DNA of 33,837 nucleotides from Candidatus Eiseniibacteriota bacterium. GTDB lineage: Bacteria > ARS69. The stretch spans positions 1 to 33,837 of the forward strand of contig JBQTGV010000136.1 in NCBI GenBank assembly GCA_052390515.1. The letters run 5' to 3'. A model generated the notes under the pieces. The model saw nothing but the letters and a program-made list of their open reading frames with translations, was not told where the DNA came from and searched no databases. The translations under genes were made by a program, and so were the position numbers. Position 1 is the stretch's first letter; each line of letters starts with the position of its first letter. Shown in pieces: positions 3,219 to 33,837 of the stretch.

Positions 3219-3368
3219 CTCGACTCCCTCCCTGCGCGACGTGCTTTCTTCGCGCAGCACGGAGTGGAACGACGGTCTCGGCGGGGGAGTCGCGCGCGGC
3301 GGGCGCGAACGGGGGTGAGGGAGTCGTTCGCCGGACCGATCGGGAAGCCAGGTGCTTCCCCGGCGCTC

Positions 3369-7483: not shown

Positions 7484-7510
7484 GGGGGGCGTGGCCGGCC
7501 TCCCGCGCGA

Positions 7511-8635: not shown

Positions 8636-8642
8636 GCTGTGC

Positions 8643-8671
8643 AATGTGCGCGAAGCCGCAGCCCGTGTCAA
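8643..8671 (-). promoter_or_regulatory. Sigma70-type promoter TTGACA-N17-CACATT for the ABC operon (probably leaderless)
   Basis: Perfect -35 at 8671-8666, 17-nt spacer, -10-like hexamer at 8648-8643, ATG 7 nt downstream and no SD. Confidence 0.55.
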
Positions 8672-10002
8672 TCGCGGGGCCGCGGGAGCTCGCTCACCAC
8701 GTCGGCGCGGTAAAAACGCTCGTAGAAGCCGGGATCCAGGTGGTGGGCCTGGTGCGCCAGGACGGTGCGGAACGGGCCGCTGCCGGGCGGGATGCGTCCG
8801 TAGCGGCGGAAGACGTACTCGCAGCACGCGATCGTCGCGGCGATGGCGCCGTCGGAGTGCTGCGGGATGGCCGTCTGGACCTTCGCACCGTCTCGCCAGC
8901 CGCTCGCTGCGCCGCCGTCGCGCATCGTCCCCGCGCCCGGCGCGAACTTCGAGTCGACGAACGCCAGGACGGCCTCCTCCATGCTGCGAAAGTACGGCGG
9001 GCACCAGGGGCGAAGGAGCACGCTGCCGTTCCGCTCCAGGCCGATCGCCGTGGGCACGAGCGCGTCCTTCCCGGCGAACTTCATCAGGGCGCGCACCGCC
9101 GGCGCGCTGCCGATGATCCGGGAGAGGCGCTGCTCCTCCATGCGGAAGCCGAGCGCTCTCGTCCAGCCGAACGGATGCGCGGCGAAGTGCGGGAAGCCGC
9201 CGAGTCCGAGCGCCTGCGTCATGAGTCCGAGGTTCTGGATCATCGCGCCGTGCTCGACCGCCGCCAGCTCGTACAGCCAGCCTTCCAGGAAGCTCAGCGT
9301 GACGACGCGCCCGCGCGCCGGATCGTCGTGCAGCCAGCCGCCCTTGGACCGCGCGAACCGACCCACGCCCGCCGGCCGGAACCCCGCGCGGTCGTCCAGC
9401 AGGAAGTAGCCGAACTCCTCGTTGAACGCGGAGAGCAGAATATTGATGGTGAGCGCGGTGAGCTCGTTCACGGGCAGGAAGTACGTCGTGCCGGGGACGT
9501 TCGCCGACCACTTGTTGAAGGGCGGAACGTAGGGCAGCTCGCGCGGGACGTCCGGGCGAACGTCGGCGATGCGCACCCGGCTCTTCTCGTAGAGCGAGGT
9601 CAGCTCGCCGGCCCGCGCCGCGGCGATGAGCGCGGGCAGCTCGGCCCTGGGGAAGTCCTGCGGCCGGCGGATCATCCAGGCGCCGCCGTCGTTCAGTACG
9701 AAGAGCACGACGTCGTGCAGCGCGTCGGGGCTCGGCACTGTCCGTCCGACGAGCTGCGCCATGATGTTGCCGCTGCCGCTTTCGTCCTCCGTGCCACGCT
9801 CGTAGGGCAGCTCCGCCAGTGCCCAGCCGGTGATCCCGCACGCGGCGAAGACGAGAGCCGCCTCCTCGTCGGGAGTCAGCGGTTCGGCGCGAAGCGTGCT
9901 TTCGAACGAGAGCGGCCCGCCGTCGAGCCGCAGTCCACGCGCGAAGCGGCGCGAACGCCGCTCCAGGAGCGCGCGGAAGAGCGGGTACTCGAAGACGTTC
10001 AC
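8668..10002 (-). CDS. Nitroreductase-fold (SagB-like) flavoprotein of unknown function, 444 aa
   Basis: GTG at 10002 overlaps the upstream stop (GTGA). Motifs LLERRSRRF (FMN-binding Arg motif), RTVPSP and EHGAMIQNLGLMTQALGLGG. Confidence 0.65.
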   Translation of the reverse strand: MNVFEYPLFRALLERRSRRFARGLRLDGGPLSFESTLRAEPLTPDEEAALVFAACGITGWALAELPYERGTEDESGSGNIMAQLVGRTVPSPDALHDVVLFVLNDGGAWMIRRPQDFPRAELPALIAAARAGELTSLYEKSRVRIADVRPDVPRELPYVPPFNKWSANVPGTTYFLPVNELTALTINILLSAFNEEFGYFLLDDRAGFRPAGVGRFARSKGGWLHDDPARGRVVTLSFLEGWLYELAAVEHGAMIQNLGLMTQALGLGGFPHFAAHPFGWTRALGFRMEEQRLSRIIGSAPAVRALMKFAGKDALVPTAIGLERNGSVLLRPWCPPYFRSMEEAVLAFVDSKFAPGAGTMRDGGAASGWRDGAKVQTAIPQHSDGAIAATIACCEYVFRRYGRIPPGSGPFRTVLAHQAHHLDPGFYERFYRADVVSELPRPRD

Positions 10003-10328
10003 GGGTCGGACCGGCGCGCGCCGCACTTCCAGCACTCGTCGAACTGCGGCTCGAGCTCCTCGCCGCAGGCCGCGCACTTCCAGGTTCCCGCCGGCGCCGC
10101 GGGCGGTTCGGACGCGGCGGCGTACTCCTCGATGATCTTCAGTGCCTCGATCTCGTCCGCGTCGTCCAGCACCCACACCGTGGGCGGCGTGTCCACCGTC
10201 ATCGGTACGGCGGCGAAGGCCCCCCACAGCGCTTCGCCATGGACCTCCGCCTCGATGCCGCGGGCGTCCAGCAGGCTGCGCACCACCTGCGCCTCGGTCG
10301 GGTCCGTAGCGACGAAGACCTGTCTCAC
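9999..10328 (-). CDS. DUF2007 (putative signal transducing) protein with a C-terminal zinc ribbon
   Basis: EAQVVRSLLDARGIEAEV at the N-terminus and WKCAACGEELEPQFDECWKCG at the C-terminus. Confidence 0.8.
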   Translation of the reverse strand: MRQVFVATDPTEAQVVRSLLDARGIEAEVHGEALWGAFAAVPMTVDTPPTVWVLDDADEIEALKIIEEYAAASEPPAAPAGTWKCAACGEELEPQFDECWKCGARRSDP

Positions 10329-10472
10329 TGCCGTGGCTCCGCCCGGAAGGGAACGCTGCCGGCCGCCGCGTCAGGGTAGCGGGGTCCCAGGGGGCCGCGC
10401 GAGGGGAATTGCGGTAATCTCCCCGTCCCGCCCCGAACCGAGCGTCCCGGGCGGGGTAGAAGGAGCATCGCC

Positions 10473-11571
<1,099 letters not shown>

Positions 11572-11582
<11 letters not shown>

Positions 11583-14500
11583 CGGGGCGCGCCGGCGCTT
11601 CGAGCGGGCCGCCCTGCTCTGCTGCTTCGCGCTCATCGGCGCGGACGCCGTCGAAGAGCCCTGGGACATCTCCTCCAGCTCGACCAGCGCCACGCGCGGC
11701 GAGGACGGCGCGCGCATCATCAGTTTCGCCGGCGACGTCCTCATCACCCACGGTGCCATGACGGCGACGTCGGAGAACGCGCGTTATCTCGAGGGACCAC
11801 GCCGGGTCCTACTGGAAGGGCGCGTGGTGATGGAGCAGGACTCGACCGTCGTGCGCGCACCGTTCGCGTACTACGACCGCGGTTCGGGAGTCGCCACGTT
11901 TCCATACGGTGTGCTGATCGAGCGGCCGACGGGCACGGCGGTGGCCGACGTCGGCGTCTGGCACCGCAACGAGAAGCGCTTCGAGCTGCGCGGCGACGCC
12001 TCCGCCGCGGACACCAGCGGCACGCTCGACGCCGAGCAGATGACCTACGACACCGCGGGCGAAGTGCTCTGGGCCGTGGGTGACGCGCGGCTCGTCGACG
12101 ACGTGAGCGGCGTCATCGTCAACGGGCAGAATCTGCGCTACTCCCGCGCGGAGTCGGAGGCGGTCGCGACCGGAGCGCCGACCGCCGTCTTCGCCGATGA
12201 ACAGGACGTCGACGTGCACGTGGCCGCGGAGCGGCTGACCTACGATCCGAGCGTGCGGCGCGCGGTGGCGGAAGGCTCGGTGCGCATCCGCCGCGAGGGC
12301 ATGGAGGCGACGTGCGGGAAGGCCACGTTCCTCCGCGACGAGGACCGCGCGGTGCTGGAGGAGGGGCCCAGCATGGTGGACGGATCGAGCGTCGTGGTCG
12401 GGGAGCGGATCGAGATGTGGACCACCGCGCCGGGGCGGCGCGTCGTGCAGGTGGACGGCGCTGCGTCCGTCTCGAACCAATTCCAGACCGACCGCCCTGG
12501 TCCGGACGCGGCCGAGCCGGAGGGTGCGGAGCCCGAGGCGGCGGACGGGGAAGGCGAGCAGCCGGAAGCCGTCGGACCGGACGCGGCCGGGGCCGAAGAG
12601 GCGAAGACGGACGCCGTGCTCGAGGAGGCGCGGGCCCGCTCGGAGCAGGCGGCGGGCCAAGTGCGAGAGCGCGTGAAGCTGCCGGACTCGACGGGCGTCG
12701 TCCCGGACGTTCCGGAGGTGGCGCCGGCGGAGCAGATCGTGGAGGGGGCTCTGGCGGCGGCGGCCGACGCGGTGGCGGCAGCTTCCGACGCAGTCCGGGC
12801 GGCGGCCGACTCGGTCGCGGCCGCTCAGGTCGCCGAGACCGCCGAAGGCGCCGACACGGCAGCCGCCGACACCACGGACGCCGAGCCGGTGCCGCCGTGG
12901 CTGAAGACGCCGTCGGACGAGCTTCCCGTCCAGAACCTGCTCTTCGGCGATCGCATCACCATGTACTTCGTGGACAACGCCGTCGAGCACGTCGTGGTCA
13001 TCGGCCATGGACGCAGCAAGTTCTTCCCCAGCGAAGCGCAGGGCGAGCTCACCGAGTGGAACGACGTCACCGGAGACACGCTCTACGTCTGGTTCGAGGA
13101 GTCCGACGTGGACAGCGTCCACGTGGCCGGCAGCGGCGAAGGACAGTACCGCTTCCCCGCGGGCGAGTTCGCGGGGCAGTCCGAGGACGAGCTGCGCGCC
13201 GCCGGCAAGCTCGTCGACTACGACGCGCCGTTCATCCGCTACATTCGCGGCCAGGAGACGATGCACCTCGACCGTGGGGCGGAGGTCCACTACAAGACGA
13301 TGACGCTCACTTCCGGCCGGATCGACTTCGAGGCGAGAAAGGAGATCATGACCGCCTCGGGGGATCCTCCGCCCGTGCTCATCGACCGCGAGGACGAGAT
13401 CCGCGGAGAGCGCATGAACTACCACCTGCCCAGCGGCAAGGGCGAGATCCTCACCGGGCGGACGGAGTTCGAGGCCGGATACTACCGCGGGCGAGACGTG
13501 TGGAAGATGGGCGAGGACGTGCTGGCGGTCGACCACGCGGAGTACACGAGCTGCGACCTGGAGGAACCTCACTACTACTTCGCCTGCCGCAACATGAAGA
13601 TCTACCTGGGCAATCGCATGGTCGCTCGCCCGGTGGTCCTCAAGGTGCGCCACATCCCGATCTTCGCCCTGCCGTTCTACATGACCTCGCTGCGCAAGGA
13701 GCGGCACTCCGGATTCCTGCTGCCGCGCGTGGAGTTCGGCGTGGACGACGAGCGCGGCCGCTTCATCCGCAACTTCGGGTACTACTGGGTACCGAACGAC
13801 TACACCGACGCGACGCTCACGTTCGACTTCTTCCCGGCGCGCGACCAGTTCGTGACCTACCTGGACACGCGTTATCACCTTCGCTATCGCTTCGAGGGCA
13901 ACGTCGGTCTCAAGTACAATCGCGACGTCTCCGCGGGCCGCAGGGAGACCGCGGTGGAGGTCCGGCACCAGCATCAGTTCTCGGAGGCGTCACGGCTGAC
14001 GGCCAACGCCAGCTTCATCTCGGCCAACTCGATCTACCAGAACATCGACGACTCCCGCCGCCTCGATCGGGACCTGTCCTCCCACGCGACCTTCACGAAG
14101 CGCTTCGGCGAGTCCCGCAACTTGCAGGTCGAGGCGCGGCGCAACGAGAACCTGGACGACGGTTCCTTCACGCAGACGCTGCCGTCGATCACGTTCACCC
14201 AGCCGAGCGTGCCCATCACCGGACGGAACACCCGCACCGGAGCGGGAGAGGAAGCGCAGGCCAGGTGGCTCGACGAGATCTACTACAAGGTGGACGGGCG
14301 CGCCGTGAACCAGAGCCAGCGCACCACGGCCGGCGTCGAGGTGGAGCGGATGGGCTCCACCGTGGACGGTCGGCTCACCACGACACAGGATCTGCTCCGC
14401 TACCTGCGGATCAGCCCGGCGCTCAACGGCGAGACGACGTGGATCGACGAGGACGCGAGGGGTGATCACAATGCGTTCCGCTCCACCTACGACGCGTCGC

Positions 14501-23322: not shown

Positions 23323-24011
23323 TGCGTCGAGCCCTGCAGGCGGCGGCGCTCTCGTCGGTATCGCTGACGTTCGCCCTGCTCGATGCCGCGCGCGCCGCCG
23401 AGCCGGAGCTCGTCGCCATCGAGCCGGCGCGTTCGGCCACGCACGTGACCTGTACGGTACAGACCGCACACCTCCCCGGCGACCGGCTGTCCTCCTCGCT
23501 CGAGAGCGGGCTGCCCTCGGCGATCGAGATGGACCTGGACCTCTTCGACGGGCGGGACCGCGTCGTCGGAACGAACCGCGTGTTCCTACGCGTTGCGTTC
23601 GACCTGTGGGAAGAGGTGTTCCGCGTGGAGGGCGCGGGCGAGCCGCGCAGCTTCGCGGATCTCGCCGGGCTCGAGGGGTTTCTGGGCCGGATTCCGCGGC
23701 TGCCTGTCGCGGCGCTCGGGCCGCTGGACGGAGCGAAGCAGCACCGCATCCGCGTGGCGCTGCAGCTGCATCCGGTTGCGCCGAAGGAAGCGGAGCGGCT
23801 CGGGCAGTGGGTCGCCGGCGAGAGCGGCGAGAGCGGCGAGACCGCGGATCCCGACGGCCGCGAGGTGTCGGTCAGCCTCGGCGAGGTGATCCGCTTCTTC
23901 TATCGTGGGGCGCGACGCGCGGGGGCGGCGGAGTCGGAGCGGTTCTCCGCGTGGTTCGTGCCGGACGCGCTGGCGGCCCCTGAGGAGAGCGATGCAGCGA
24001 ATCCGCAGTAG
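23322..24011 (+). CDS. Exported DUF4390-like protein
   Basis: TGATG coupling, signal peptide, L.SGLP and V.FDLWEE.FRV pattern. Position directly before an NtrY-like kinase is typical for DUF4390. Confidence 0.6.
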   Translation: MRRALQAAALSSVSLTFALLDAARAAEPELVAIEPARSATHVTCTVQTAHLPGDRLSSSLESGLPSAIEMDLDLFDGRDRVVGTNRVFLRVAFDLWEEVFRVEGAGEPRSFADLAGLEGFLGRIPRLPVAALGPLDGAKQHRIRVALQLHPVAPKEAERLGQWVAGESGESGETADPDGREVSVSLGEVIRFFYRGARRAGAAESERFSAWFVPDALAAPEESDAANPQ

Positions 24012-25416
24012 GCTCGTCCTCGCGTTCGTCGTCGTCGCGCTGCTGCCGGCCGTGCCGCTCGCGTTCCTGGTGCGGGATCTGCTGGAGCGAAGCTTCGCGC
24101 CGCCGTTCACGGCCGACGCGGCCGCGGCGCTGGAAGCGGCGCTCGAGGATCAGCGGGAACGTCTTCGCGAGGCCCGCGAGCGCTTCGCCGCGGAGATCGC
24201 GTCGGGGGCGGCGCCCGCGTCCGGCGACCTCGCGTTCGACCCGTCGGCCTCGGGTCGAGTGCCTGCGGAACTGGCGGCGTGGGAAGGCACCCGCGCCGCT
24301 GCCGGCGTCTTCGGGCCGGAGCGCGTCGGCGAGTGGCTCGCGGCGTCGGTGCCGGCGCCGGACGGATCGCGGCGAATCCTCGCTCGGCCGCTGCCCGAGG
24401 GGCTCGCCGCGCGCGCCGAGCAGGTCGTCGACGCGGTCGCGTTGCTCCGCGCCTTCCGGGAGGACCGTGCCGCCGTGCTCCGCAGCTTCGTCGTGCCGTT
24501 CCTGTTGTCGTACGCGCTGTTGCTCGCCGTCGCCTTCGCCGTCGGCACGATGCTCGCGCGGCGGATCGCCCGGCCGGTCGAGGCGCTGGCCGCGGGCGCC
24601 GCGCGGGTCGGCGCCGGCGCGCTCGACACGCGGGTCGAGACGGACGCGTCGGGCGAGGTCGGCGAGCTGGTCGGCGCGTTCAACCGCATGGTCTGTGACC
24701 TCGCCGCCCAGCGCGAAGAGCTAGCGCGGCTGGAGCGCGTGGCGGCTTGGCGGGACCTCGCCCGGCACTTGGCGCACGAGATCAAGAACCCGCTGACACC
24801 GATCCAGCTCGCCGTGCAGCAGCTCGGCGAGAAGTGTCCGAAGGCAGGCACCGGCGGCGCGGCCGAGGCCGAGTACCGCGCGCTGGTCGGCGAGTGCGTC
24901 GAGATCGTCGACGAGGAGGTGGCGAGTCTTCGCCGGCTCGTGAAGGAGTTCTCCGAGTTCGCGCGGCTGCCGGAGCCGAAGCTCGAGCCCGGCGACGTCG
25001 CCCTCCTGCTCGACGAGGTGGTGCGTCTCTACGGGGCGGAGCGCGCGTCTAGAAGCGGGGACGCCACGGTGCCGGCGCGCTTCGACGCCGCCGAGCTCAA
25101 GCGCGCGCTGGTGAACCTGGCCGACAACGCGCTCGCCGCGTGCCGCGCAGCCGGCCGGCCGGAGCGCGTCGAGCTGTCCTGCACCCGCGACGGCGGCGCC
25201 GCGCGCATCCGCGTCACCGACCGAGGCTCGGGAATCGCCGCGCAGGACCTTCGCCGCATCTTCGAGCCGAACTTCTCCACGAAGAAGGAAGGGATGGGCC
25301 TGGGGCTCGCCATCGTCGAGGGAATCGTTCGCGGGCACGGGGGGACGATCCGCGTGGAGAGCGTTCCGGGCGAGGGCGCCACGTTCACGATCCGGCTGCC
25401 CGAGGAGGGGCGATGA
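23992..25416 (+). CDS. NtrY-like HAMP sensor histidine kinase
   Basis: GAGGAG SD, two TM helices, HAMP (EVGELVGAFNRM), H-box AWRDLARHLAHEIKNPLTPIQL, EFSEFAR, NLADNA, DRGSGI and G.GLGL. Confidence 0.93.
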   Translation: MQRIRSRLVLAFVVVALLPAVPLAFLVRDLLERSFAPPFTADAAAALEAALEDQRERLREARERFAAEIASGAAPASGDLAFDPSASGRVPAELAAWEGTRAAAGVFGPERVGEWLAASVPAPDGSRRILARPLPEGLAARAEQVVDAVALLRAFREDRAAVLRSFVVPFLLSYALLLAVAFAVGTMLARRIARPVEALAAGAARVGAGALDTRVETDASGEVGELVGAFNRMVCDLAAQREELARLERVAAWRDLARHLAHEIKNPLTPIQLAVQQLGEKCPKAGTGGAAEAEYRALVGECVEIVDEEVASLRRLVKEFSEFARLPEPKLEPGDVALLLDEVVRLYGAERASRSGDATVPARFDAAELKRALVNLADNALAACRAAGRPERVELSCTRDGGAARIRVTDRGSGIAAQDLRRIFEPNFSTKKEGMGLGLAIVEGIVRGHGGTIRVESVPGEGATFTIRLPEEGR

Positions 25417-25468
25417 AGAGCTGCGCGTCGGTCTCGGAGAAGGGGCGATGAGGAAGCGCGTCCTGGTC
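25402..25468 (+). repeat. Degenerate 35-bp-period tandem duplication of the kinase/regulator junction, creating mini-ORF 25413-25451
   Basis: GAGGAGGGGCGATGAAGAGCTGCGCGTCGGTC is followed by GAGAAGGGGCGATGAGGAAGCGCGTCCTGGTC. Confidence 0.7.
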
Positions 25469-26869
25469 GTCGACGACGAGAAGAACATTCGGCGGACGCT
25501 GGCGATGGTGCTCGGCGCGGAGGGCTTCGACGTCATCGAGGCCGATTCGGCCGAAGCCGGCCTGCGCGCGCTGGAAGAGTCCGGCGCCGACGTCGTGCTG
25601 CTCGACCTGAACCTCCCGGGGATGGACGGTCTGGAGATGCTCCGCCAGGTGAAGCGGACCGATCCGGACCGCGCCGTGATCATGATCTCCGGACAGGGGA
25701 CCGTGCAGACGGCGGTGGAGGCGACGCGCGCCGGCGCCTTCGACTTCCTGGAGAAGCCCCTGGCGAGGGAACGCGTGCTCGTGGCGGTGCGCAACGCGGC
25801 GAGCGTGGGGAGCCTGGGGCGGGACGTTCGCGACCTGCGTGAGCGGGAGCGCGGCCGCCACGCCATGATCGGGGACTCGGAAGCTGTGCGGCGGCTTCGC
25901 GAGGAGATCGAGCGCGCGGCGCCGACGAACGCACGCGTGCTGATCCTCGGCGAGAGCGGCACGGGAAAGGAGCTGATCGCGCGAGCGCTGCACGAGGCGT
26001 CGGCACGCGCCGCCGGGCCTTTCGTGAAGGTGAACTGCGCGGCGATCCCCGAGGAGCTCATCGAGAGCGAGCTGTTCGGCGCGGTGAAGGGCGCGTACAC
26101 CGGGGCCGACTCGTCCCGCGACGGCAAGTTCGCGCAGGCCGACGGCGGGACGATCTTCCTCGACGAGATCGGCGACATGAGCGCACGCGCGCAGGCCAAG
26201 GTCCTCCGCGCGCTGCAGGAGGGCGAGATCGAGCGCGTCGGCGGGAGCGGCGTCGTGAAGGTGGACGTGCGCGTCATCGCCGCGACGAACAAGGATCTGG
26301 AGAACGAGGTCCGCGCCGGCCGCTTCCGCGAGGATCTGTGGTATCGCCTGAACGTGGTGCCGATCCGCGTCCCGCCGCTGCGGGAACGGTCCGGCGACGT
26401 CGCCAGGCTTGCGCGGCACTTCCTGGAGCGTTTCCGGGCGGAGAACAACCGCGGGCCGATGCGGCTCACGGACGAGGCGGTGGCGGCCCTGGAGCGTTCG
26501 CCGTGGCCCGGGAACGTCCGGGAGCTGCAGAACTTCGTGGAGCGGCTGGCCATCATGGCCCGGGGCGCGGAGATCGGGCCAGCGAACCTCGGGCTCACGT
26601 CGCCTGCGAAAGTTGCCGAAGGAACCGCGGATGACCGCGCGGCCGGACCCGCTGGGCCGAGGGGCCTTTCGCCGGGCGAGATCGAGGCCGCGGGTGGTCT
26701 CGTCGAGGCGCGGCGGCGGTTCGAGGCAGCCTGCATTCGCGAGTGCCTCGAAGCCGCGCAGGGAAACGTGTCGCACGCGGCCAGGCTGCTCGGGATCGAC
26801 CGCACGAACCTGCACAAGAAGCTGGCGAGCCTCGAGATCGAGGCGGCCAAGGAGGAGGAAGGCAGATGA
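25448..26869 (+). CDS. Sigma54-dependent response regulator (NtrC/NtrX family: REC-AAA+-Fis HTH)
   Basis: VVDDE, LLD, GESGTGKE, ESELFG..KGAYTGA, FLDEIG, RFREDL.YRLNV, WPGNVRELQN and NVSHAARLLGI.R.NL.KK. Confidence 0.95.
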   Translation: MRKRVLVVDDEKNIRRTLAMVLGAEGFDVIEADSAEAGLRALEESGADVVLLDLNLPGMDGLEMLRQVKRTDPDRAVIMISGQGTVQTAVEATRAGAFDFLEKPLARERVLVAVRNAASVGSLGRDVRDLRERERGRHAMIGDSEAVRRLREEIERAAPTNARVLILGESGTGKELIARALHEASARAAGPFVKVNCAAIPEELIESELFGAVKGAYTGADSSRDGKFAQADGGTIFLDEIGDMSARAQAKVLRALQEGEIERVGGSGVVKVDVRVIAATNKDLENEVRAGRFREDLWYRLNVVPIRVPPLRERSGDVARLARHFLERFRAENNRGPMRLTDEAVAALERSPWPGNVRELQNFVERLAIMARGAEIGPANLGLTSPAKVAEGTADDRAAGPAGPRGLSPGEIEAAGGLVEARRRFEAACIRECLEAAQGNVSHAARLLGIDRTNLHKKLASLEIEAAKEEEGR

Positions 26870-27510
26870 AGTCACTCGGCATCGGCGCCGCGGCGGCGAT
26901 CTTCGCCCTCGTGGCTGCTCAGGCAGACCCGGCCGCAGCGTCGGACACGCGCGGCTTCATGATGGGGCTCGATCTCGGCACCAGTCACATCGACGCGCAG
27001 GACGAGTCGTCCGGCGCACCCGCGGGCTCCGTGTTCATCGAGGACACCGGCGCCGGCGCGAGCCTGCTCTTCGGTTGGGGCTTCACGCCGTCCTTCGCGC
27101 TGCGGCTCAACGCGTCCGGCGGCCAGCACGACACCAGCGATCCCGACACCGAGTTCTGGCTGAACAGCGGGACGCTCGAGGCAATGTATCTCTTCCGGAA
27201 TCCGCAGCCCGTCCGGCCCTTCGTGCTCGGCGGCGTCGGTGGGTTCACCATGCGCTCCCGCCGCGACGATCTGGACTTCGAGACGACCGGTCCCGGCGTC
27301 GTTCTCGGCGCGGGCCTCGTGTACTTCGCCGGCGAGCGCTTCGCCTTCGACTTCGAGGTGCGCGGCGACTTCATCAACTGGGACGAAGCGACGGCAACGC
27401 TCACGCAGCCGGGCGGAAGCCAGATTCAGATCGACGTGCCGATCGAGGAAGAAGGCTCCGCGGCCAAGTTCCTGTTCGGCGTGAACTGGTGGTTCGGCCG
27501 GGGAGAGTAG
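26866..27510 (+). CDS. Small outer-membrane beta-barrel protein (OmpA-TM/OMP_b-brl-like)
   Basis: ATGA coupling with a strong SD, signal peptide, about 8 amphipathic strands, RPFVLGGVG and last strand KFLFGVNWWF. Confidence 0.8.
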   Translation: MKSLGIGAAAAIFALVAAQADPAAASDTRGFMMGLDLGTSHIDAQDESSGAPAGSVFIEDTGAGASLLFGWGFTPSFALRLNASGGQHDTSDPDTEFWLNSGTLEAMYLFRNPQPVRPFVLGGVGGFTMRSRRDDLDFETTGPGVVLGAGLVYFAGERFAFDFEVRGDFINWDEATATLTQPGGSQIQIDVPIEEEGSAAKFLFGVNWWFGRGE

Positions 27511-28886
27511 GAACGGAACGTCGCCAGCACGAGGAAGAGCACGGCGATCGAGGCCGGCCCGAGCAGCAGCCGCTGCAACGTGTCGTAGAGGTACTCCTCG
27601 GTCTCGTGCGGCCAGATGACATAGAGCGCCACGTCGACGGCGATCAGCACTGCGACCGGTAGAAGCAGGTACCGGAGCGGACTGCGGATCGCCGTCTTCG
27701 CTCTGGCCACGAGCACCACCAGGAAGAGCGGCCACAGCACGTTCCAGTGACCCACGTCGGTGAAGTGGTGGAGAAAGATGCCGGGCAGCCCGCCGACGCG
27801 GTGCAGGTGGCCCCACACCGTCGCCCACGTGACATTGGATGCGTTGACGACGTCGTTCTCGAGTCCGGCGGCCCGCGTGAAGAGGCTCCAGGGCAGGACG
27901 ACGAGCGCGCCGGGAAGGGCGAAGCGGGCGAAGGCGGCCGCCGCGCGGCGCGGCCTGCTCCGCCCCTCGACGACGACGTAGAAGCCGAGCGTCACCGCCA
28001 GCGACAGGAAGAGCGCGAAACCGTCGTTCTTCGTCCAGCCGCAGAGCCCCGCGAAGATCCCGGCGAGCACGAGGAGTCGGCCGTCCTTCTCGTGCATCCA
28101 GCGGAAGAGCAGCCCGAGGCTCGTCACGAAGTAACAGACCAGCACCGGCTCGACCATCGTGCCGATGACCCACCTCTGCAGTCCGGAGAGCGTCGCGAAG
28201 AGGAGCGCGCCGAGCAGCGCCGGCTCGACGGCCACGGTGCGGCGCAGAAAGGCGAAGGCGTTGACGCACAGCGCCGCGTGGAAGAGCGGGAAGAGGACGC
28301 GCGGGGGCTGATCGTTCCACTCTCCGAGGAAGAGGAGGATCCACGTCTCGAGGAGCGGGACGTGCTGCGGGTAGTCCCAATGCCCGAAGGTCTTCTCGAA
28401 CTCCGGGAAGAGGTCGAGCGGGACGATGCGATGCACGAAGAAGATCTTCGCCTTGTAGGCCCACATGGCCCACGCGTCCCAGTGGTCGATCTCCACGAGC
28501 ATCGTCCGGGCGAAGACGGTGGCGAGGCTCACGACGATGGAGGCGACGAGGACGACGCGGAGCGGAAGGGATGCCGGTGCGACGGCGGCGACGGCGGCCG
28601 GCGCGTCGGGAGGTGTGGAACGCCCCCGCCGGAGAGCGAACACGATACCTGCCGGCAAGAGCAGGATGGTGGCGAGGAGCCGCGTGTCGAAGTGCACGCC
28701 GGCGAACGAGAGCAGCAGCATCGTCAGGGTGAGTGCGCCGGATCCGAGGCCGAACGCGAGGGACAACCGATCGAGCCGGCCGAAGAGCGACCGCGCTCCG
28801 AAGCAGGCGTCGAGCAGCAGCCAGCCGGCCAACGTCGGTACGGCCAGCGCCGCCGCGACGCGAACGAGATCCATGCCGTCGCTCAC
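27426..28886 (-). CDS. GT-C fold membrane glycosyltransferase (ArnT/PMT-like)
   Basis: GTGA coupling and about 12 TM helices. First external loop has WDAWAMWAYKAK, plus DYP and WTKNDG motifs. Confidence 0.65.
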   Translation of the reverse strand: MSDGMDLVRVAAALAVPTLAGWLLLDACFGARSLFGRLDRLSLAFGLGSGALTLTMLLLSFAGVHFDTRLLATILLLPAGIVFALRRGRSTPPDAPAAVAAVAPASLPLRVVLVASIVVSLATVFARTMLVEIDHWDAWAMWAYKAKIFFVHRIVPLDLFPEFEKTFGHWDYPQHVPLLETWILLFLGEWNDQPPRVLFPLFHAALCVNAFAFLRRTVAVEPALLGALLFATLSGLQRWVIGTMVEPVLVCYFVTSLGLLFRWMHEKDGRLLVLAGIFAGLCGWTKNDGFALFLSLAVTLGFYVVVEGRSRPRRAAAAFARFALPGALVVLPWSLFTRAAGLENDVVNASNVTWATVWGHLHRVGGLPGIFLHHFTDVGHWNVLWPLFLVVLVARAKTAIRSPLRYLLLPVAVLIAVDVALYVIWPHETEEYLYDTLQRLLLGPASIAVLFLVLATFRSYSPRPNHQFTPNRNLAAEPSSSIGTSI

Positions 28887-29344
28887 CGCCGCGAGAGCAG
28901 GTAGCGGTTCGGGCCGAGGAACTCGACCTGCACGTATCCGGGAGGCGTTTCGAAGTCACGCACGCCGTACACGAGGATGTGATCGCGCAGGGTCCGGTCG
29001 TCGCCCGTGTTCCGCGGGTAGAGGAGGTAGCGGGCGCGGTCCCGGAGGAACTCGTAGCGGTAGGTCGGTTCGGTCGGGAGCACGATCTGGAGCTCGGCGC
29101 CGGGCGGCAGCAGCGCGTCGCAGAACTGCAGGGTCTCGTACCACTCGGCGGTCTGCGGATCGAGTCTCGAGTGGTGGCGGCGCAGCGTCTCGGGATCGGC
29201 ACTCAGGGCGAAGCGGTAGTAGGGGAGATGCTCGCGGACGGCTCCGGTGGCGAACGCGACGTACACGGAGAGCCAGACGGCGAGCAGCGCCCAGGTGAGG
29301 CCACGTTCCCGAGCGTGAATCGGCAGCGCCCCCCTCGCCGTCAT
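28883..29344 (-). CDS. Membrane-anchored hypothetical protein coupled to the GT-C gene
   Basis: One N-terminal TM helix, then a small soluble domain with RARYLLYPR. Stop overlaps the GT-C start. Start uncertain (ATG 29344 chosen). Confidence 0.65.
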   Translation of the reverse strand: MTARGALPIHARERGLTWALLAVWLSVYVAFATGAVREHLPYYRFALSADPETLRRHHSRLDPQTAEWYETLQFCDALLPPGAELQIVLPTEPTYRYEFLRDRARYLLYPRNTGDDRTLRDHILVYGVRDFETPPGYVQVEFLGPNRYLLSRR

Positions 29345-29388
29345 CGAAGCCGCGTGACCGCCATCGAGATGAGACACTTCATGAAGGG

Positions 29389-29394
29389 AGTGTA
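29389..29394 (-). promoter_or_regulatory. -10 element TACACT 6 nt upstream of a mini-ORF ATG (29382)
   Basis: TACACT-cccttc-ATG. No convincing -35. Confidence 0.4.
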
Positions 29395-29482
29395 GCCGAT
29401 CGGCCCGCGGCACGCGTCAGCGCAGGTTGCCCGAGGGCGGCGGCCCGCCAAGGCATCACGGGATGCTCGGGAGCGGGGGACG

Positions 29483-30421
29483 CTACTCCGGCGGCGTGAA
29501 GACGAACGGCGCCTGGAACGTGACCTCTCCGGAGGCGACCTTCGGGAACTTCCAGGCCTCGATCTGCGCGAGCGCGCACGCGGTGAGCGCGGCGGAGCGG
29601 AGCGTGTCCTTCACCACGGCAGCTTCCGTGACCTTTCCGGAGGCGGCCACGGTGATGGCGACGATCAGCTTGCCGCCGAGCGACGGGTTCCTCTCCAGCT
29701 CGTTGTCGTAGCAGAACTGGATTCCGGGCGCGTACTTCCGCACCACCGCGAGCAGTGACGCATCGGTGCGGATCTCGCTGGCGGACGTCGGGGCGCCGTC
29801 GGCCCCGCGCCCCTGCGGCGCACCCGAGCCCGACTCGGGCAGCGCCTCGATCTCGATGCGGGCACCGGCGATCGCCACGCTCGGCCCCGCGGAAGCGCCG
29901 GCAGCCGCCGACATCGGGGTGATGTCGGCGACCTGGTTCGAGCCCCGCCCGGATCGGGTCGTCCGTCGCTGAGTCGTGCGCGCCGGGGTCGTCGGCTCCT
30001 TCGAAGCGAGCGTGGCGTCGAGTCCGGTCAGCATGCCGTCGAGCGAGGCGGCGGCGGCGTTCAGCTGCTTCGTGGCCTCCTTCGCGCGTTGCCGTCCGGC
30101 GGCGCCGGCGTCGACCACGGGCTTCGGCTTCGGCTCGGGAGCGGCGGCCTTGGCGACTTCCGGCGTCGGGGCCTTCCTCGCCGCAGGCGGGGTGGGAGCG
30201 GGCTTGGCCGCGGCCTCCGCCTCCGGGCGCACGGGCGGCGGCTTCGGCGCCTCGGGCTCGAGCCAAGTGACCTCGATGAGCTCGTCCGGCTCGGCGACAT
30301 CCATGCGTGCGAAGCCCAGATAGAGCAGCAGCGCTGCGTGCACGACGGCGCTCGCGATGAGCGCCTGCCGGGTTCGGGCCCGGATCCGGTCGAACTCGAC
30401 CGCCAGCATCATCGTGCTCAT
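29483..30421 (-). CDS. TonB-like energy transducer with an AgmX/PglI-type C-terminal domain (GltG-like)
   Basis: N-terminal TM with SAVVH (S-x3-H), a Pro/Ala/Lys spacer, and C-domain IQFCYDNELERNPSLGGKL.V.I......G.V........TL....LTAC....I..WKFP......PFVF. Confidence 0.8.
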   Translation of the reverse strand: MSTMMLAVEFDRIRARTRQALIASAVVHAALLLYLGFARMDVAEPDELIEVTWLEPEAPKPPPVRPEAEAAAKPAPTPPAARKAPTPEVAKAAAPEPKPKPVVDAGAAGRQRAKEATKQLNAAAASLDGMLTGLDATLASKEPTTPARTTQRRTTRSGRGSNQVADITPMSAAAGASAGPSVAIAGARIEIEALPESGSGAPQGRGADGAPTSASEIRTDASLLAVVRKYAPGIQFCYDNELERNPSLGGKLIVAITVAASGKVTEAAVVKDTLRSAALTACALAQIEAWKFPKVASGEVTFQAPFVFTPPE

Positions 30422-30843
30422 CGAACGATCTCCGTGTGCGGCTTGGTCGCCACGGCGATGCGCGTAGCCCCCGCGGCACGTGCGTCCTCCAGGAGGGCGC
30501 GGACCGCGGCGTACTGCACCCCGGCGTCGGCCCGAACGACGAGGAACCTGTCCTCGGCGTCGCGCTTCTCGAACTTGGCGGCGAGCTCGCGCCGGAGCAT
30601 CGTGCGCGGCATGACCTCGTCGTCGATGGCCACCTTCGACTCCCGGGACAGGGTGACGTTGACGTGCGGCTCGTTACCCAGCGTCTTGCTCTTGGCCGGA
30701 GGCAGCTCGAGCTCGAGAGGCGGGACGGCGAGCATGGGTGCCGTGATCATCAGGATGATCACCAGCACGAGAGCCACGTCGATGATCGGCGTCACGTTGA
30801 TGGTCACGTTCTCGGAGTCGTTCGGCACGAAAGGGCGACGCAT
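30418..30843 (-). CDS. exbD: ExbD/TolR (AglQ/S-like) motor subunit
   Basis: INVTPIIDVALVLVIILMI with the channel Asp, L.LP and VVRADAGVQY. Start is 30843 (ATG) or 30846 (GTG). Confidence 0.9.
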   Translation of the reverse strand: MRRPFVPNDSENVTINVTPIIDVALVLVIILMITAPMLAVPPLELELPPAKSKTLGNEPHVNVTLSRESKVAIDDEVMPRTMLRRELAAKFEKRDAEDRFLVVRADAGVQYAAVRALLEDARAAGATRIAVATKPHTEIVR

Positions 30844-31253
30844 CACTCCCCCCCTTGCGCGATGGCGATCGCCTCGGCGCCGCTGAGCTTCGCCTGGTCG
30901 AGAACGTTGACGAACGCGCCGTGGGAGACGCCGTCTCCGCAGGTGACGACGACCGGCGGCGGCTGCGGCACGGCCAGGAGCGGAGCGAGCGCTGCAGAGA
31001 GCTCCGAGCGCGCCAGGCGCGCGCTGTTGAGCAACACGTCGGTGTCATCCGGAATGGAGATCACCACGGGCTCGGCGGGCTCCTCGGCAACTTCCGCGTC
31101 GGCCGCATGCGTACGCTGCACCGCGATGTTCGACTCGGACGCGAGCGGCGTGAGCAGCATCAGGATCACGACGAGCACGAGCGACACGTCGATCAGGGGC
31201 ACGACGTTGACCTCGTGCATTCCGTTCCCGTTCGCGGAGTTGTCGGAGTGCAT
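30843..31253 (-). CDS. exbD: ExbD/TolR (AglQ/S-like) motor subunit
   Basis: GGAGG SD, VNVVPLIDVSLVLVVILML and D.VSHG..V.VLD.AK..G. Confidence 0.9.
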   Translation of the reverse strand: MHSDNSANGNGMHEVNVVPLIDVSLVLVVILMLLTPLASESNIAVQRTHAADAEVAEEPAEPVVISIPDDTDVLLNSARLARSELSAALAPLLAVPQPPPVVVTCGDGVSHGAFVNVLDQAKLSGAEAIAIAQGGE

Positions 31254-31255
31254 GG

Positions 31256-31972
31256 TTACCTCCCGACGGCATGCCCGGGCGTGCGAGCGGGCGTGGTGGC
31301 GGTGGGCCGGGTCTCGGGAGCGCGGGCGGGTGCGGGCGCCGACGACGGGCGAGCCGACATTCCGGCCAGAGCGGCCCGGATCCGGCGCGTGTGGTTCTCG
31401 GCGACGGTGAGCATGGTGTTCATACGGCGCACGAGGTGGTTGTAGGTGACGAGGGACGGCACGGCGATGATGATTCCGGCTGCCGTCGTGAAGAGCGCCT
31501 CGGCGATGCCCGCGGCGACCACGGACGGTCCGGCCGAGCCGGCCAGGGCCATGTCCTTGAACGCGTGCATGATTCCCCAGACCGTTCCGAGGAGACCGAT
31601 CAGAGGCGAGATCGCCGCCATCGTGCCGAGGACGCCGACGTTGCGCTCCAGCATCATGCGCTGCTCGCTGAGGGCGATGTACACGCGCTCCTCGAGAACG
31701 TTGTCCGCGGCCGGACCATCGCGGAAGAGCGCGGCGGCTGCGGCGCCGAAGGGGTGCTGGGTGGCCTGGCAGATCCGCGCCGCCTCGCGCACGTTGCCCG
31801 ACTCCAGCTCGGAGAGCGCTTTGCGGACGGTGGCGTCGGGATCGCCGCGCCGCTTGGCGAAGTAGAGGAAGCGCTCGATCGCCGCCCCGAGGGCGAGCAC
31901 GCTGCAGGCGACGAGGACGATGAAGACCGGGCTCGTCCCCATCAGCTTGAGCCAGTTGAAGTCGGTGGACAT
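31256..31972 (-). CDS. exbB: MotA/TolQ/ExbB proton-channel protein (AglR-like)
   Basis: AAGGAG SD, ATG at 31972, IERF, and SPLIGLLGTVWGIM.AF...GIAEALFTTAAGIIIAVP. Confidence 0.93.
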   Translation of the reverse strand: MSTDFNWLKLMGTSPVFIVLVACSVLALGAAIERFLYFAKRRGDPDATVRKALSELESGNVREAARICQATQHPFGAAAAALFRDGPAADNVLEERVYIALSEQRMMLERNVGVLGTMAAISPLIGLLGTVWGIMHAFKDMALAGSAGPSVVAAGIAEALFTTAAGIIIAVPSLVTYNHLVRRMNTMLTVAENHTRRIRAALAGMSARPSSAPAPARAPETRPTATTPARTPGHAVGR

Positions 31973-31974
31973 GT

Positions 31975-32298
31975 TCACTCCTTCAGGGCGGAGGCATCCG
32001 CGGCGTTGAGGGAATCCGGGGGCGTGACCGTGACCGGGATCGTGATCGGGACCGGGATCGTGATCGGGACCGGGCCCGACGGCGTGATCTCGTTCGCCAC
32101 CGCGTCGAGCGGGGGCAGGTACTCCTCGAGAAAGTCGAGGGGACGTTCCGTCTCGCGCGAGGTGATGAAGAGCACGCGCGGCAGGCGCACCTCGCCCTCG
32201 ATGGTGATCTCGTCCAGCGTCTTGACGCCGGCGTCCGCGCGCCGGCCCTCCGCCGCCGGCAGCATCAGCAATCCGATGGCGAGTGTCAGGAACGTCAC
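31975..32298 (-). CDS. Small exported protein, CglF/GltF-like
   Basis: GTGA coupling and a signal peptide. LDEITIEGEVRLPRVLFITSR resembles the D..IEG....P....I..R core of GltF, and the gene follows gltD/E-like genes. Confidence 0.6.
   Translation of the reverse strand: MTFLTLAIGLLMLPAAEGRRADAGVKTLDEITIEGEVRLPRVLFITSRETERPLDFLEEYLPPLDAVANEITPSGPVPITIPVPITIPVTVTPPDSLNAADASALKE
32023..32076. repeat. 3 x 18-bp in-frame tandem repeat (6-bp sub-period) encoding PVPITI-PVPITI-PVTVT
   Basis: CGTGACCGTGACCGGGAT / CGTGATCGGGACCGGGAT / CGTGATCGGGACCGGGCC. Confidence 0.9.
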
Positions 32299-33167
32299 GG
32301 CTGCTTCTCCTCCCCGTTCTGCCGGGCCAGCTCGACGGAGAGGGCCTGCTCCAGCCCGTCGGGATCGTCGCTGGCGACTTCCCGGTAACGGGCGAACCAG
32401 TCACGGGCGCTCTTCGTGTCGAAGCGGTAGAAGTGCTCGACGATCGCCAGGTTGTAGAGCGGACCGGGAAGCTCCGGTTCCAGGCGGTTCGCCTTGATGA
32501 AGTGCTCTCGCGCAGTCTCGGGGTCACCGGCGTAGAGCCGGGTGATGCCGTAGTTGTTGTGATTCACGGCGGTCGGCGCCGCATCCAGCGCGCGCCGCGC
32601 CGTCTCCTCGGCGGCCTCGAAGCCTTCTCCGCGCAGCCGCAGGTACGCGAGCCCGGCTCCGCCCGCGGCCCAGTCCGCCAGCTTCGGTTCCAGCGACGCC
32701 ACGATCTGCTCGGCGTGCTGCGGGTCGCCGGCCGCGTCGTAGTGCAGGGCCAGCGCGACGCCGAGCAGGTCCGGCAGCGGGCCGCGCTGACGCGCCCCTT
32801 CGAGGGCGGCGATGGCCTCGTCGTGCCGGCCCGCGTCGTACCAGAGCTTCGAGGCGAGCGAGAGCGACGGCGCGTGAGCGGGATCCCGCGCGAGCGCTTG
32901 ACGCAGAGCCGCTTCGGCCTGAACGGCGTCGCCGTCCTCGAGACGGATCTCGGCGATGCGGAACGGCCAGTACGGCTCGGCGGGATGCAGCGTGGCCTTC
33001 GCCCCGAGCTCGGCGATCTCGCCGGGCGCGCTCTCCGCGGCCACCGGCTCCGCCCGGTCGCTGCCGACCCATGGGATCCAGCGGAATGGAATCGTCGAGC
33101 AGCCGCCCAGAGAGAGCGTGCATGCCACGGCGAACGCCGCCCGCGAGAACGAGGCCCGGGTGCTCAC
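32295..33167 (-). CDS. TPR lipoprotein, GltE/AglT-like
   Basis: GTG at 33167 overlaps the upstream stop, lipobox LGGC, TPR repeats, and a C-terminal NNYGI...YNLAIVEHFY..D...A...F.RY pattern. Confidence 0.7.
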   Translation of the reverse strand: MSTRASFSRAAFAVACTLSLGGCSTIPFRWIPWVGSDRAEPVAAESAPGEIAELGAKATLHPAEPYWPFRIAEIRLEDGDAVQAEAALRQALARDPAHAPSLSLASKLWYDAGRHDEAIAALEGARQRGPLPDLLGVALALHYDAAGDPQHAEQIVASLEPKLADWAAGGAGLAYLRLRGEGFEAAEETARRALDAAPTAVNHNNYGITRLYAGDPETAREHFIKANRLEPELPGPLYNLAIVEHFYRFDTKSARDWFARYREVASDDPDGLEQALSVELARQNGEEKQP

Positions 33168-33837
33168 TTCGCGTCTTCCTCTTCGGGGGGCGCTGCGGAG
33201 ATCCAGGGATGCTCGACCTCGGGGCGATGTGCGAAGCGTCGCGCGATGCGCGGCCACAGCTCGCTCTCGGCCCGCTCGACCCAGTCGCCCTCGGCGCCGC
33301 CCTCCGCGGCACGTCGAACCAACCCCGCCCAGGTCTCTTCCCCGCGGTCCCAGAAGTCCCAGCTGCGCTCTTCCAGGACCTGCTCGTAGGCGGCCAGATC
33401 GTCCCCCTCCAGATCGGCGGGCCGGTCGCTCTCCATGAGTGCGTCGCCGAACTCCACCAGGCACTCCCCGATGCGAAACGCCGCGGCCTGGTTCCACGGG
33501 GCGACGGCGTATTCCGAGCACGCCCGGTACTCGGTCAGGGCACCTTCGAGCAGCTTCTTCTTCTGGGCCACGGCGGGCTCCAGCGGCTGCGTCAAGCGGG
33601 CCCGCTCGAGCGCGATCCGCGCCTCCTCGCCGTGACGGAAGCGCACCTCCGCGAGGATCCCGCGGGAGGCGAGCGAATCGTGCTTCGCGGCGAGATCCAG
33701 GTAGCGTCGGAGGTTCACTGCGCGCGGGTCCTTGGCTAGCGCCCGCGTGACAGTCTCCTCCGGTGAGAGGGCCGCGAGCGCCCGGCCGGCCCGGCGCTCG
33801 AGAAAACAAAAGGCCGCCAGCACGACGCCACGCCAAC
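33164..33837 (-). CDS. C-terminal part of a large TPR protein, GltD/AgmU-like (5'-truncated by the window edge)
   Basis: Frame is open to the window end. The pattern KKKLL......Y.....Y....W..AAAFRIG.....F..AL....RP..L..D.L..Y...LEE matches the GltD/AgmU C-terminus as I recall it. Confidence 0.7.
   Translation of the reverse strand, partial: WRGVVLAAFCFLERRAGRALAALSPEETVTRALAKDPRAVNLRRYLDLAAKHDSLASRGILAEVRFRHGEEARIALERARLTQPLEPAVAQKKKLLEGALTEYRACSEYAVAPWNQAAAFRIGECLVEFGDALMESDRPADLEGDDLAAYEQVLEERSWDFWDRGEETWAGLVRRAAEGGAEGDWVERAESELWPRIARRFAHRPEVEHPWISAAPPEEEDAK

Follow-up and report, generated by a model that had tools for sequence, protein, structure and literature searches.

A Glt/Nfs-type envelope gene cluster outside the Myxococcota in which motor and transducer anchor appear to have been exchanged together

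To our knowledge, the directed movement of surface structures by a Tol/Exb-type motor is known only from the Agl-Glt and Nfs systems, and we know of the transfer of force from their stator to the outer membrane from predicted models only. In Nfs, one operon encodes, in this order, outer-membrane barrel(s), periplasmic proteins, D, E, a small protein and G. Here we describe a cluster of seven genes in a 33,837-bp stretch of DNA (the window), which is the entire contig C136 of a 4.27-Mb metagenome-assembled genome (MAG; G000, 223 contigs, 95% complete). The cluster encodes a GltD-like large TPR (tetratricopeptide repeat) protein, a GltE-like TPR lipoprotein, a small protein, an ExbB/TolQ-like subunit, two ExbD/TolR-like subunits and a TonB-like (GltG-like) transducer. 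We consider it likely that these are parts of a trans-envelope machine of the Glt/Nfs family, whose original Agl-type motor and transducer anchor have been replaced by a set of another type, here termed S2.

The window cluster shares with Myxococcus Nfs (nfsA-H) and Glt the overall gene order, the AgmX/PglI-type C-domain on G and the TPR scaffolds. It differs in that Nfs and Glt use AglRQS from another locus whereas the window type has its motor within the operon, and outside the C-domain the proteins share no more than about 20% of their residues. The host is not myxobacterial, as the original prediction (made from the letters of the window alone) had supposed; in the collection searched, its tiny phylum consists of a single family with some twelve species genomes. 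The seven co-directional, tightly coupled genes were likewise described correctly in every detail, as judged by open reading frame (ORF) coordinates, family matches and motifs: four of the junctions are 4-nt start/stop overlaps and two are 2-nt gaps.

A single-locus 'core complex' was published for non-myxobacteria in 2011, with function unknown (PMC3169522). The single-locus arrangement holds for all carriers outside the Deltaproteobacteria (one Beta-, several Gammaproteobacteria, one member of the Fibrobacteres) and for Geobacter, and gltF, gltA and gltB were listed as restricted to Myxococcales and Bdellovibrionales (PMC3169522). A single-locus Glt-like machine outside the Myxococcota is therefore not new as a kind. 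The window cluster resembles that core complex in occupying one locus outside the Myxococcota and in having GltD-, GltE- and GltG-like proteins with one TolQ-like and two TolR-like subunits. It differs in three respects: (i) GltC, which belongs to the published core, was not detected; (ii) a GltF-like gene and a barrel of the GltA/B family are present; (iii) the motor falls outside the Agl clade. For Myxococcus, PMC11761067 presents a model in which AglR5-QS-GltG resembles TolQ5R2-TolA, GltG wraps GltD and rests its C-domain on the N-domain of GltD, GltE attaches to the C-domain of GltD and a β-strand of GltF pairs with the sheet of the GltG C-domain. The same paper gives GltG two cytoplasmic FHA domains, whereas the window transducer has none.

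The transducer carries the clearest family signature. Its C-domain scores 88.4 bits with NF033768, the AgmX/PglI C-domain model (cut-off 40), and is the sole copy in the genome; one such protein above cut-off is found in seven of the ten genomes of the phylum with at least 80% completeness, and matches to the GltG model number 19-24 in each of three Myxococcota genomes. The two cysteines first noticed in this domain are present (QFCY and TACA) and invariant, in 10 of 10 relatives in one set and 30 of 30 in another. Scans with Pfam and NCBIfam gave no match to an FHA domain, and about 20 residues precede the membrane helix, in agreement with the FHA-less protein originally described.

The N-terminus has a different affinity. 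Residues 14-55 match the start of a canonical TonB encoded in the S2 locus of G004, a complete genome of the same family, at 38% identity (E 4e-7), and do not align to the GltG of the Glt-like cluster of G004. Residues 57-312 are 47% identical to that GltG, whose own N-terminus does not align. On these alignments the TonB-like protein is a natural hybrid of an S2-type anchor and a Glt-type periplasmic part. Comparison of 15 N-termini extends the observation: ten clusters with Agl-type motors have a common anchor, YRxPxxGxxDP...VPERFAKLILE, which lacks histidine, and two clusters with non-Agl motors (G011 and L054) have a histidine-containing anchor of the same kind as the window. The GltG-like N-termini of L030, L035 and L038 are unlike either type. 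Anchor type thus tracks motor type in the clusters inspected.

The motor has the same make-up as AglRQS, one TolQ-like and two TolR-like subunits, each of the latter retaining the predicted channel Asp in the membrane segment (PLIDVSLV and PIIDVALV). Its ancestry is different. In a tree of 75 ExbB proteins (quick IQ-TREE), 34 of the 36 cluster-linked ExbB of sister loci form one clade (support 99). An Agl clade of 51 rows (support 98) comprises this sister clade, the Glt-linked ExbB of Bdellovibrionota and paralogues associated with two ExbDs from two Myxococcota genomes. The window ExbB does not fall in the Agl clade; it is placed on the TolQ side, where it groups with the cluster ExbB of G011 and a non-cluster paralogue of G004 (support 99). 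The approximately unbiased (AU) test rejects a grouping of all cluster-linked ExbB with the Agl clade (p 7e-5; 83.9 log-likelihood units worse), and the window ExbDs have no phmmer match at E<=1e-3 to ExbDs of Agl-type clusters. The sequence comparisons thus show the window motor not to be an AglRQS orthologue, contrary to the original prediction. A third cluster with an ExbB outside the Agl clade, L054 (labelled Krumholzibacteriia), also has a histidine in its transducer anchor and may be an independent motor replacement.

The tree position raises the question of a second Tol-Pal-like system, acting in envelope integrity or division, with a TolQR-like motor, a TolA-like transducer and CpoB/YbgF-like TPR proteins. 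The window ExbB and the TolQ of the genome fall in one half of the tree, and TolQ and TolR are the best NCBIfam matches of the motor, all under cut-off (TolQ TIGR02796, 102 bits against 221; TolR, 57 and 78.5 bits against 127), as are the ExbB, ExbD and TonB equivalog models on the window proteins. The GltD-like protein has five to six YbgF-like TPR stretches (TIGR02795, 96-106 bits), but bona fide Myxococcaceae GltD yields the same matches, so these cannot separate Tol from Glt. The genome has a canonical Tol-Pal set elsewhere, with TolQ at the end of contig C40 and TolR, TolB and Pal on C121, and most sister clusters have Agl-type motors. No family match to TolB, Pal or a TonB-dependent receptor was found among the 26 window ORFs scanned, as the first description had it, nor upstream of the cluster on contig C5 (see below). 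An ordinary ExbB/TolQ affinity next to a receptor or tolB-pal had been named beforehand as telling against a Glt-like machine; the TolQ-side grouping is found and neither neighbour adjoins the cluster. We regard a Tol-Pal-like role as very unlikely.

The probable source of the motor can be traced within the family. G004 has an Agl-type motor in its own Glt-like cluster and a separate S2 locus (L158; G004:C1:4328000-4346000, minus 6474-13041), which encodes a 1027-aa TPR protein, ExbB, ExbD, ExbD, TonB and a 315-aa protein. The TonB is canonical (TonB_C, 54.9 bits), and identity to the window is 49% for ExbB, 52% for the first ExbD and 44% for the second. S2 is thus the apparent donor type of the window motor. 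The S2 genes for the TPR protein, the TonB C-domain and the 315-aa protein have no counterpart in the window genome (tblastn, E<=1e-5). An ExbB of S2 type (at least 49% identity, near full length) occurs in four of 12 family genomes: as a cluster gene in the window genome and G011, and at another site in G004 and G006. The D, E and G proteins of G011 are 59-61% identical to those of its congener G007 but the ExbB proteins only 29%; between the window and G011, D, E and G are 51-55% identical and the motor 67-68%. Since the anchor aligns to the S2 TonB, the periplasmic part aligns to the cluster GltG, and anchor tracks motor, the exchanged unit is, at the level of sequence, ExbB, both ExbDs and the anchor. 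One event with lateral spread and two separate events are both compatible with the sequences. A chimeric assembly as the origin of the odd motor was considered and rejected, because the swapped arrangement is also present in a second assembly (G011, on a contig of 1.25 Mb) and because neighbouring genes overlap by 4 nt.

Another reading is an ordinary TonB-ExbB-ExbD uptake energiser lying beside TPR accessories, with the AgmX/PglI domain a variant TonB C-domain for receptors encoded elsewhere. Like Tol-Pal and TonB-ExbBD, the window system has an ExbB/TolQ and ExbD/TolR stator with the membrane Asp and a single-pass, histidine-containing anchor followed by a Pro-rich linker; its motor groups with generic TolQ/ExbB-type proteins and not AglR, and the system from which motor and anchor came has a canonical TonB_C protein. 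PF03544 (TonB_C) falls just under threshold on the transducer, at 23.2 bits against 24.6, and the ordinary TonB locus of the genome likewise has paired ExbD genes. However, AgmX/PglI takes the place of TonB_C or TolA-III as output domain, the cluster has no linked receptor, TolB or Pal, and both C-domain and linker have their orthologues in clusters with Agl-type motors. The genome, which has five MotA/ExbB-family genes including the window copy, also has an energiser of its own, an ExbB-ExbD-ExbD-TonB-TonB locus on C165 (with MotAB), and ExbBD on C93. In 29 of 48 loci, moreover, the cluster is accompanied by genes of GltD-, GltE-, GltF- and GltA/B-like type. An uptake function is, in our view, unlikely.

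Those 48 sister loci show what is conserved. The full order of GltD-like, GltE-like, small protein, ExbB, two ExbD and GltG-like genes is present in 29, with 16 of the others cut by contig ends and three deviating; since the order recurs in so many related loci, the arrangement is far beyond chance. The related MAGs are labelled Krumholzibacteria, Eisenbacteria, Latescibacteria or Gemmatimonadetes, the submitters' own labels for sister loci being Gemmatimonadetes/Gemmatimonadota, Candidatus Krumholzibacteriia, Eisenbacteria, Latescibacteria or plain 'bacterium', with a single locus (L026) labelled Fibrobacteraceae. No motor genes lie between the small gene and the G gene in L030 and L035, and in L038 only ExbB was detected there. 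The position of the motor between gltF- and gltG-like genes was correctly observed in the window; it is no special feature, being the standard order in dozens of MAGs. Among loci labelled Bdellovibrionota, L070, L076, L081, L093, L095, L097 and L098 have ExbB-ExbD-ExbD directly before the GltG-like gene, and in L080, L087, L096 and L099 the motor lies ahead of gltD...gltF-gltG; motor position therefore varies within Glt clusters.

The remaining cluster proteins were compared with a Glt reference locus from a Myxococcaceae MAG (G041), in which GltE (393.6 bits against 225), CglF/GltF (93.9 against 90), GltG (652 against 650) and GltC (864 against 450) all exceed the curated cut-offs. The reference GltC adjoins two TIGR04565 barrels, taken as GltB and GltA, and GltD was identified with the 1238-aa protein encoded upstream of GltE. 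The large TPR protein of the window is open at the contig end, a truncation by assembly and not by biology, and its remaining 223 residues are 51-55% identical to the C-termini of 1475-1635-aa proteins in genomes of the same family. The C-terminal family that includes this fragment aligns to GltD of Myxococcota and Bdellovibrionota over 97 columns, GltD 933-1032 (hhalign, 95.8%, E 8e-9), after removal of one leaked sister sequence from the target, with which the figure is 98.3%. Full-length large TPR proteins of sister clusters match reference Myxococcaceae GltD (phmmer, down to E 6e-27), and one from the same family aligns collinearly to it over 487 residues (BLASTP, E 6e-10). NCBIfam gave no GltD-specific match. 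Judged by these alignments, the protein is a remote homologue of GltD. The TPR lipoprotein appears GltE-like in sequence: it scores 40.8 bits with NF033758 (GltE; E 1.3e-10), far below the cut-off of 225, and aligns to the GltE family over 199 columns (hhalign, 99.3%, E 3e-20), a figure inflated by the TPR repeats.

The small protein belongs to a family whose motif TLDxITIEGExxxPxVLFITSR is invariant and which has a 35-residue invariant core; I33, G35, P40, V42 and F44 are the same in all 31 sequences. It resembles GltF/CglF in its position between E and G, its size and its signal peptide. It has no match in Pfam or NCBIfam, NF033764 included, and a look-up in the ESM Atlas returned unnamed clusters only (0.84-0.86) and was uninformative. 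Its family aligns to the conserved core of GltF over 34 columns (hhalign, 66%, E 5e-5). When a hidden Markov model (HMM) of the family was run against 12,264 ORFs, the best matches outside the family were members of the GltF family (15.8 bits, E 0.006; next 10.4 bits) together with ORFs of no assigned family that occupy the place between gltE and gltG in loci of Polyangia. Conversely, the GltF HMM matches the small proteins of sister loci at the same motif, with up to 17.5 bits. From these profile matches and its position the small protein is probably a very divergent GltF. The Glt-like character first proposed for the TPR and small proteins thus holds for GltD through profile matches, more tentatively for GltE and, for the small protein, as a probable GltF.

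By analogy with the Myxococcus model, the motif common to the sister small proteins and GltF is a good candidate for strand pairing with the C-domain of the transducer. A predicted complex of residues 19-80 of the small protein with the C-domain scores 0.42 (best of three controls, 0.00), with at least 95% contact agreement among runs and a partner pLDDT (predicted local distance difference test) of at least 51. The mark used for such predictions is passed by 58 of 80 solved complexes and by 2 of 110 mismatched pairs, and at a score of 0.60 or less by only seven of those 80 together with both passing mismatches. The prediction gives weak support to a contact between the two.

The cluster probably continues beyond the window. 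When the 1460-aa protein of a relative is searched with tblastn, its residues 90-1271 map to the end of contig C5 and its residues 1242-1454 to C136. The two contigs would then be joined through the GltD-like gene, a join inferred from this complementary coverage and from the gene order of relatives. Upstream of the GltD-like gene on C5, on the same strand and tightly spaced, are genes for an NHL protein with a sorting tail of the type IX secretion system (T9SS), a 202-aa lipoprotein, a 211-aa secreted protein, a 301-aa protein with an SH3 domain and an outer-membrane barrel, a 189-aa protein and a 279-aa protein. The 301-aa SH3-barrel protein scores 62.7 bits with TIGR04565 (cut-off 60), the family of the reference-genome GltA and GltB, and is the only protein of the genome over this cut-off; its putative linkage to the window genes is through the adjoining contig. 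The 301-, 189- and 279-aa genes keep their place immediately ahead of the GltD-like gene in 26, 27 and 28 loci respectively; the 211-aa gene is found in four, most loci being cut before that position. The model of the 189-aa protein has a tandem PepSY-like fold (pLDDT 90; 4exr, E 1e-5), and that of the 279-aa protein a membrane or signal helix, a 70-residue helix and a β-sandwich (pLDDT 78). Assigning a function to the latter from its fold was abandoned, the matches being generic β-sandwiches (HGSNAT luminal domain, transthyretin, TssJ, AlgF; template modelling score <=0.28 on the query). The operon therefore probably has about 12 genes, split over C5 and C136, with the seven window genes as its distal half. 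The compact, minimal core first proposed does not survive these conserved upstream genes, which include a GltA/B-family barrel. At the contig ends, window 33769-33835 and G000:C5:98527-98593 hold one common segment of the GltD-like gene, in which only ~80% of the nucleotides agree, and the final ~200 nt of C5 match nothing in the window; the mismatch at this assembly break looks like strain heterogeneity.

With homologues of GltD, E, F, G and A/B and a proton motor in one operon, the cluster could be thought to encode a working Agl-Glt-like gliding machine in uncultured lineages, and in the window genome the gene for the surface-type NHL protein with its T9SS tail overlaps the first upstream gene. 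The position of the NHL gene is, however, not kept in sister loci, the transducer lacks an FHA domain and GltC was not found in the sister loci by phmmer. In addition, the authors of PMC3169522 argue that core genes do not suffice for motility and are present in non-gliders. We regard a gliding function as very unlikely.

We propose instead a machine of the Glt/Nfs family that has exchanged its drive. The sequences show its gene content, homologies, synteny and motor/anchor swap, as set out above; its stoichiometry, contacts and output we infer as follows. The inner-membrane stator would be a ring of the ExbB/TolQ-like protein with the two different ExbD/TolR-like subunits, in which proton flow would be converted into conformational work on the single membrane helix of the TonB/TolA-like transducer. 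The long linker and disulfide-capable AgmX/PglI C-domain of the transducer would dock onto a periplasmic scaffold made of the ~1,600-aa GltD-like protein and the GltE-like TPR lipoprotein. The small GltF-like adaptor would probably offer its invariant β-strand motif to the C-domain in the manner of a TonB box. The route to the surface would lead through the C5 products, namely the GltA/B-family barrel with its SH3 domain, a second putative barrel, the tandem-PepSY protein and the coiled-coil/β-sandwich protein, with the SH3-barrel, possibly together with the 211-aa protein, at the outer-membrane end. In the window lineage the Agl-type motor and the transducer anchor were exchanged together for their counterparts from S2 (TPR-ExbB-ExbD-ExbD-TonB). 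The output would be the movement or assembly of an outer-membrane or surface component, and not nutrient uptake, because no receptor, TolB or Pal is linked and the housekeeping systems are located elsewhere. Nor would it be focal-adhesion gliding of the Myxococcus style, because cytoplasmic coupling of the FHA type is missing (GltI, GltJ and AglZ were not searched for).

Membership of the Glt/Nfs family follows from a GltG-type C-domain over cut-off, the profile matches to GltD and GltE, the probable GltF and the conserved synteny. Several observations weigh against this assignment or against the swap. The GltG equivalog model NF033760 gives the transducer 65 bits against a cut-off of 650, tenfold short. 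The GltE match may be largely generic TPR similarity, as the PilW and PrsT models score equally, and the GltF link is weak, with no BLASTP alignment of the small protein to bona fide GltF and HMM scores no higher than those given above. GltC has no phmmer match in any sister locus (E<=0.01) and no NF033756 match among cluster and upstream proteins, and no conserved cargo gene flanks the cluster beyond the upstream operon genes. The ends of C5 and C136 overlap by ~70 nt at the ~80% identity already noted and then diverge, so that the barrel is tied to the window by a putative join. The ExbB tree has several long branches, and the group used in the AU test was chosen post hoc from the tree. Finally, no non-myxobacterial member has had its function shown (PMC3169522). 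On balance, the Agl-Glt-like machine of the original prediction stands as a member of the Glt/Nfs family, shorn of AglRQS orthology and of its minimal scope.

Our literature search found no paper on such clusters in Krumholzibacteriota, the relevant matches being Myxococcus papers only. Three things go beyond the published picture: the broad distribution across several uncultured phyla, the presence of GltF-like and GltA/B-family genes in a non-myxobacterial form, and the natural joint replacement of motor and transducer anchor. A more general idea, which we hold tentatively and think somewhat less than even in its chances, is the following: the ancestral Glt/Nfs machine would already have had barrel and adaptor, the adaptor motif (TLDxIxIEGxxxxPxVxFIxxR, proposed to extend from the candidate phyla to Myxococcus) would be the 'TonB box' of the AgmX/PglI domain, and only the anchor would have to match the stator. 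If this were true, the GltA/B-type barrel and the GltF-type adaptor would not be myxobacterial or bdellovibrionite additions, and any Tol/Exb-type stator could drive a Glt-type periplasmic and outer-membrane machine, given a matching anchor.

With motor, transducer, scaffold, adaptor and barrel probably in one operon, and widespread in several uncultured phyla, the cluster offers a compact version of the system for comparison. Exchange of stator and transducer helix as one unit points to the helix as the specificity determinant, and the natural chimera suggests chimeras that could be built in Myxococcus. The motif common to the small protein and GltF is a concrete candidate for mutation at the putative contact with the AgmX/PglI domain.

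Table 1. Coordinates of the cluster genes and transducer segments in the window
Feature	Position	Strand	Basis or remark
Seven ORFs	29483-33835	minus	ORF translations
GltD-like giant TPR/helical periplasmic scaffold, C-terminal 223 aa	33164..33835	minus	5' part cut off by contig end
GltE-like TPR lipoprotein, lipobox LSLGGC	~32295-33167	minus	start overlaps upstream stop by 4 nt; TPR families
Small secreted/anchored protein, 107 aa, with KTLDEITIEGEVRLPRVLFITSRE	31975-32298	minus	family in 42 loci
ExbB/TolQ-like proton-channel subunit, S2 type	31256-31972	minus	PF01618 MotA_ExbB, 105 bits
ExbD/TolR-like subunit 1	30843-31253	minus	PF02472, 69.5 bits; membrane Asp
ExbD/TolR-like subunit 2	30418-30846	minus	PF02472, 85.9 bits; membrane Asp
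TonB-like protein, 312 aa	29483-30421	minus	AgmX/PglI C-domain NF033768, QFCY and TACA
N-terminal membrane anchor, residues 1-55, His-containing, S2/TonB type	30257..30421	minus	alignment to S2 TonB
Periplasmic part: Pro/Ala/Lys-rich linker, conserved helical segment, GltG-type C-domain	29483..30256	minus	NF033768

On the same strand after the TonB-like gene (27426-29413, minus) lie a gene for a 176-aa protein, after a 69-nt gap, and one for a 486-aa multi-pass membrane protein, the two overlapping by 4 nt; the latter has a weak match to PMT_2, a glycosyltransferase-like family (E 0.001). No terminator-like site was found between these genes and the cluster; they were left out as members because the synteny is not kept in four relatives. 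At 23905-27510 (plus), 2-5 kb from the cluster and on the opposite strand, are genes for a HAMP histidine kinase, a sigma-54-dependent (NtrC-like) response regulator and a small outer-membrane β-barrel protein. Sorting tails of the T9SS type occur on proteins in the window as well as upstream on C5. A 1069-aa protein at 51-3260 (minus) combines seven DUF11 repeats (713 bits) with a FlgD_ig-type tail at its C-terminus, and is probably a T9SS-sorted surface protein.

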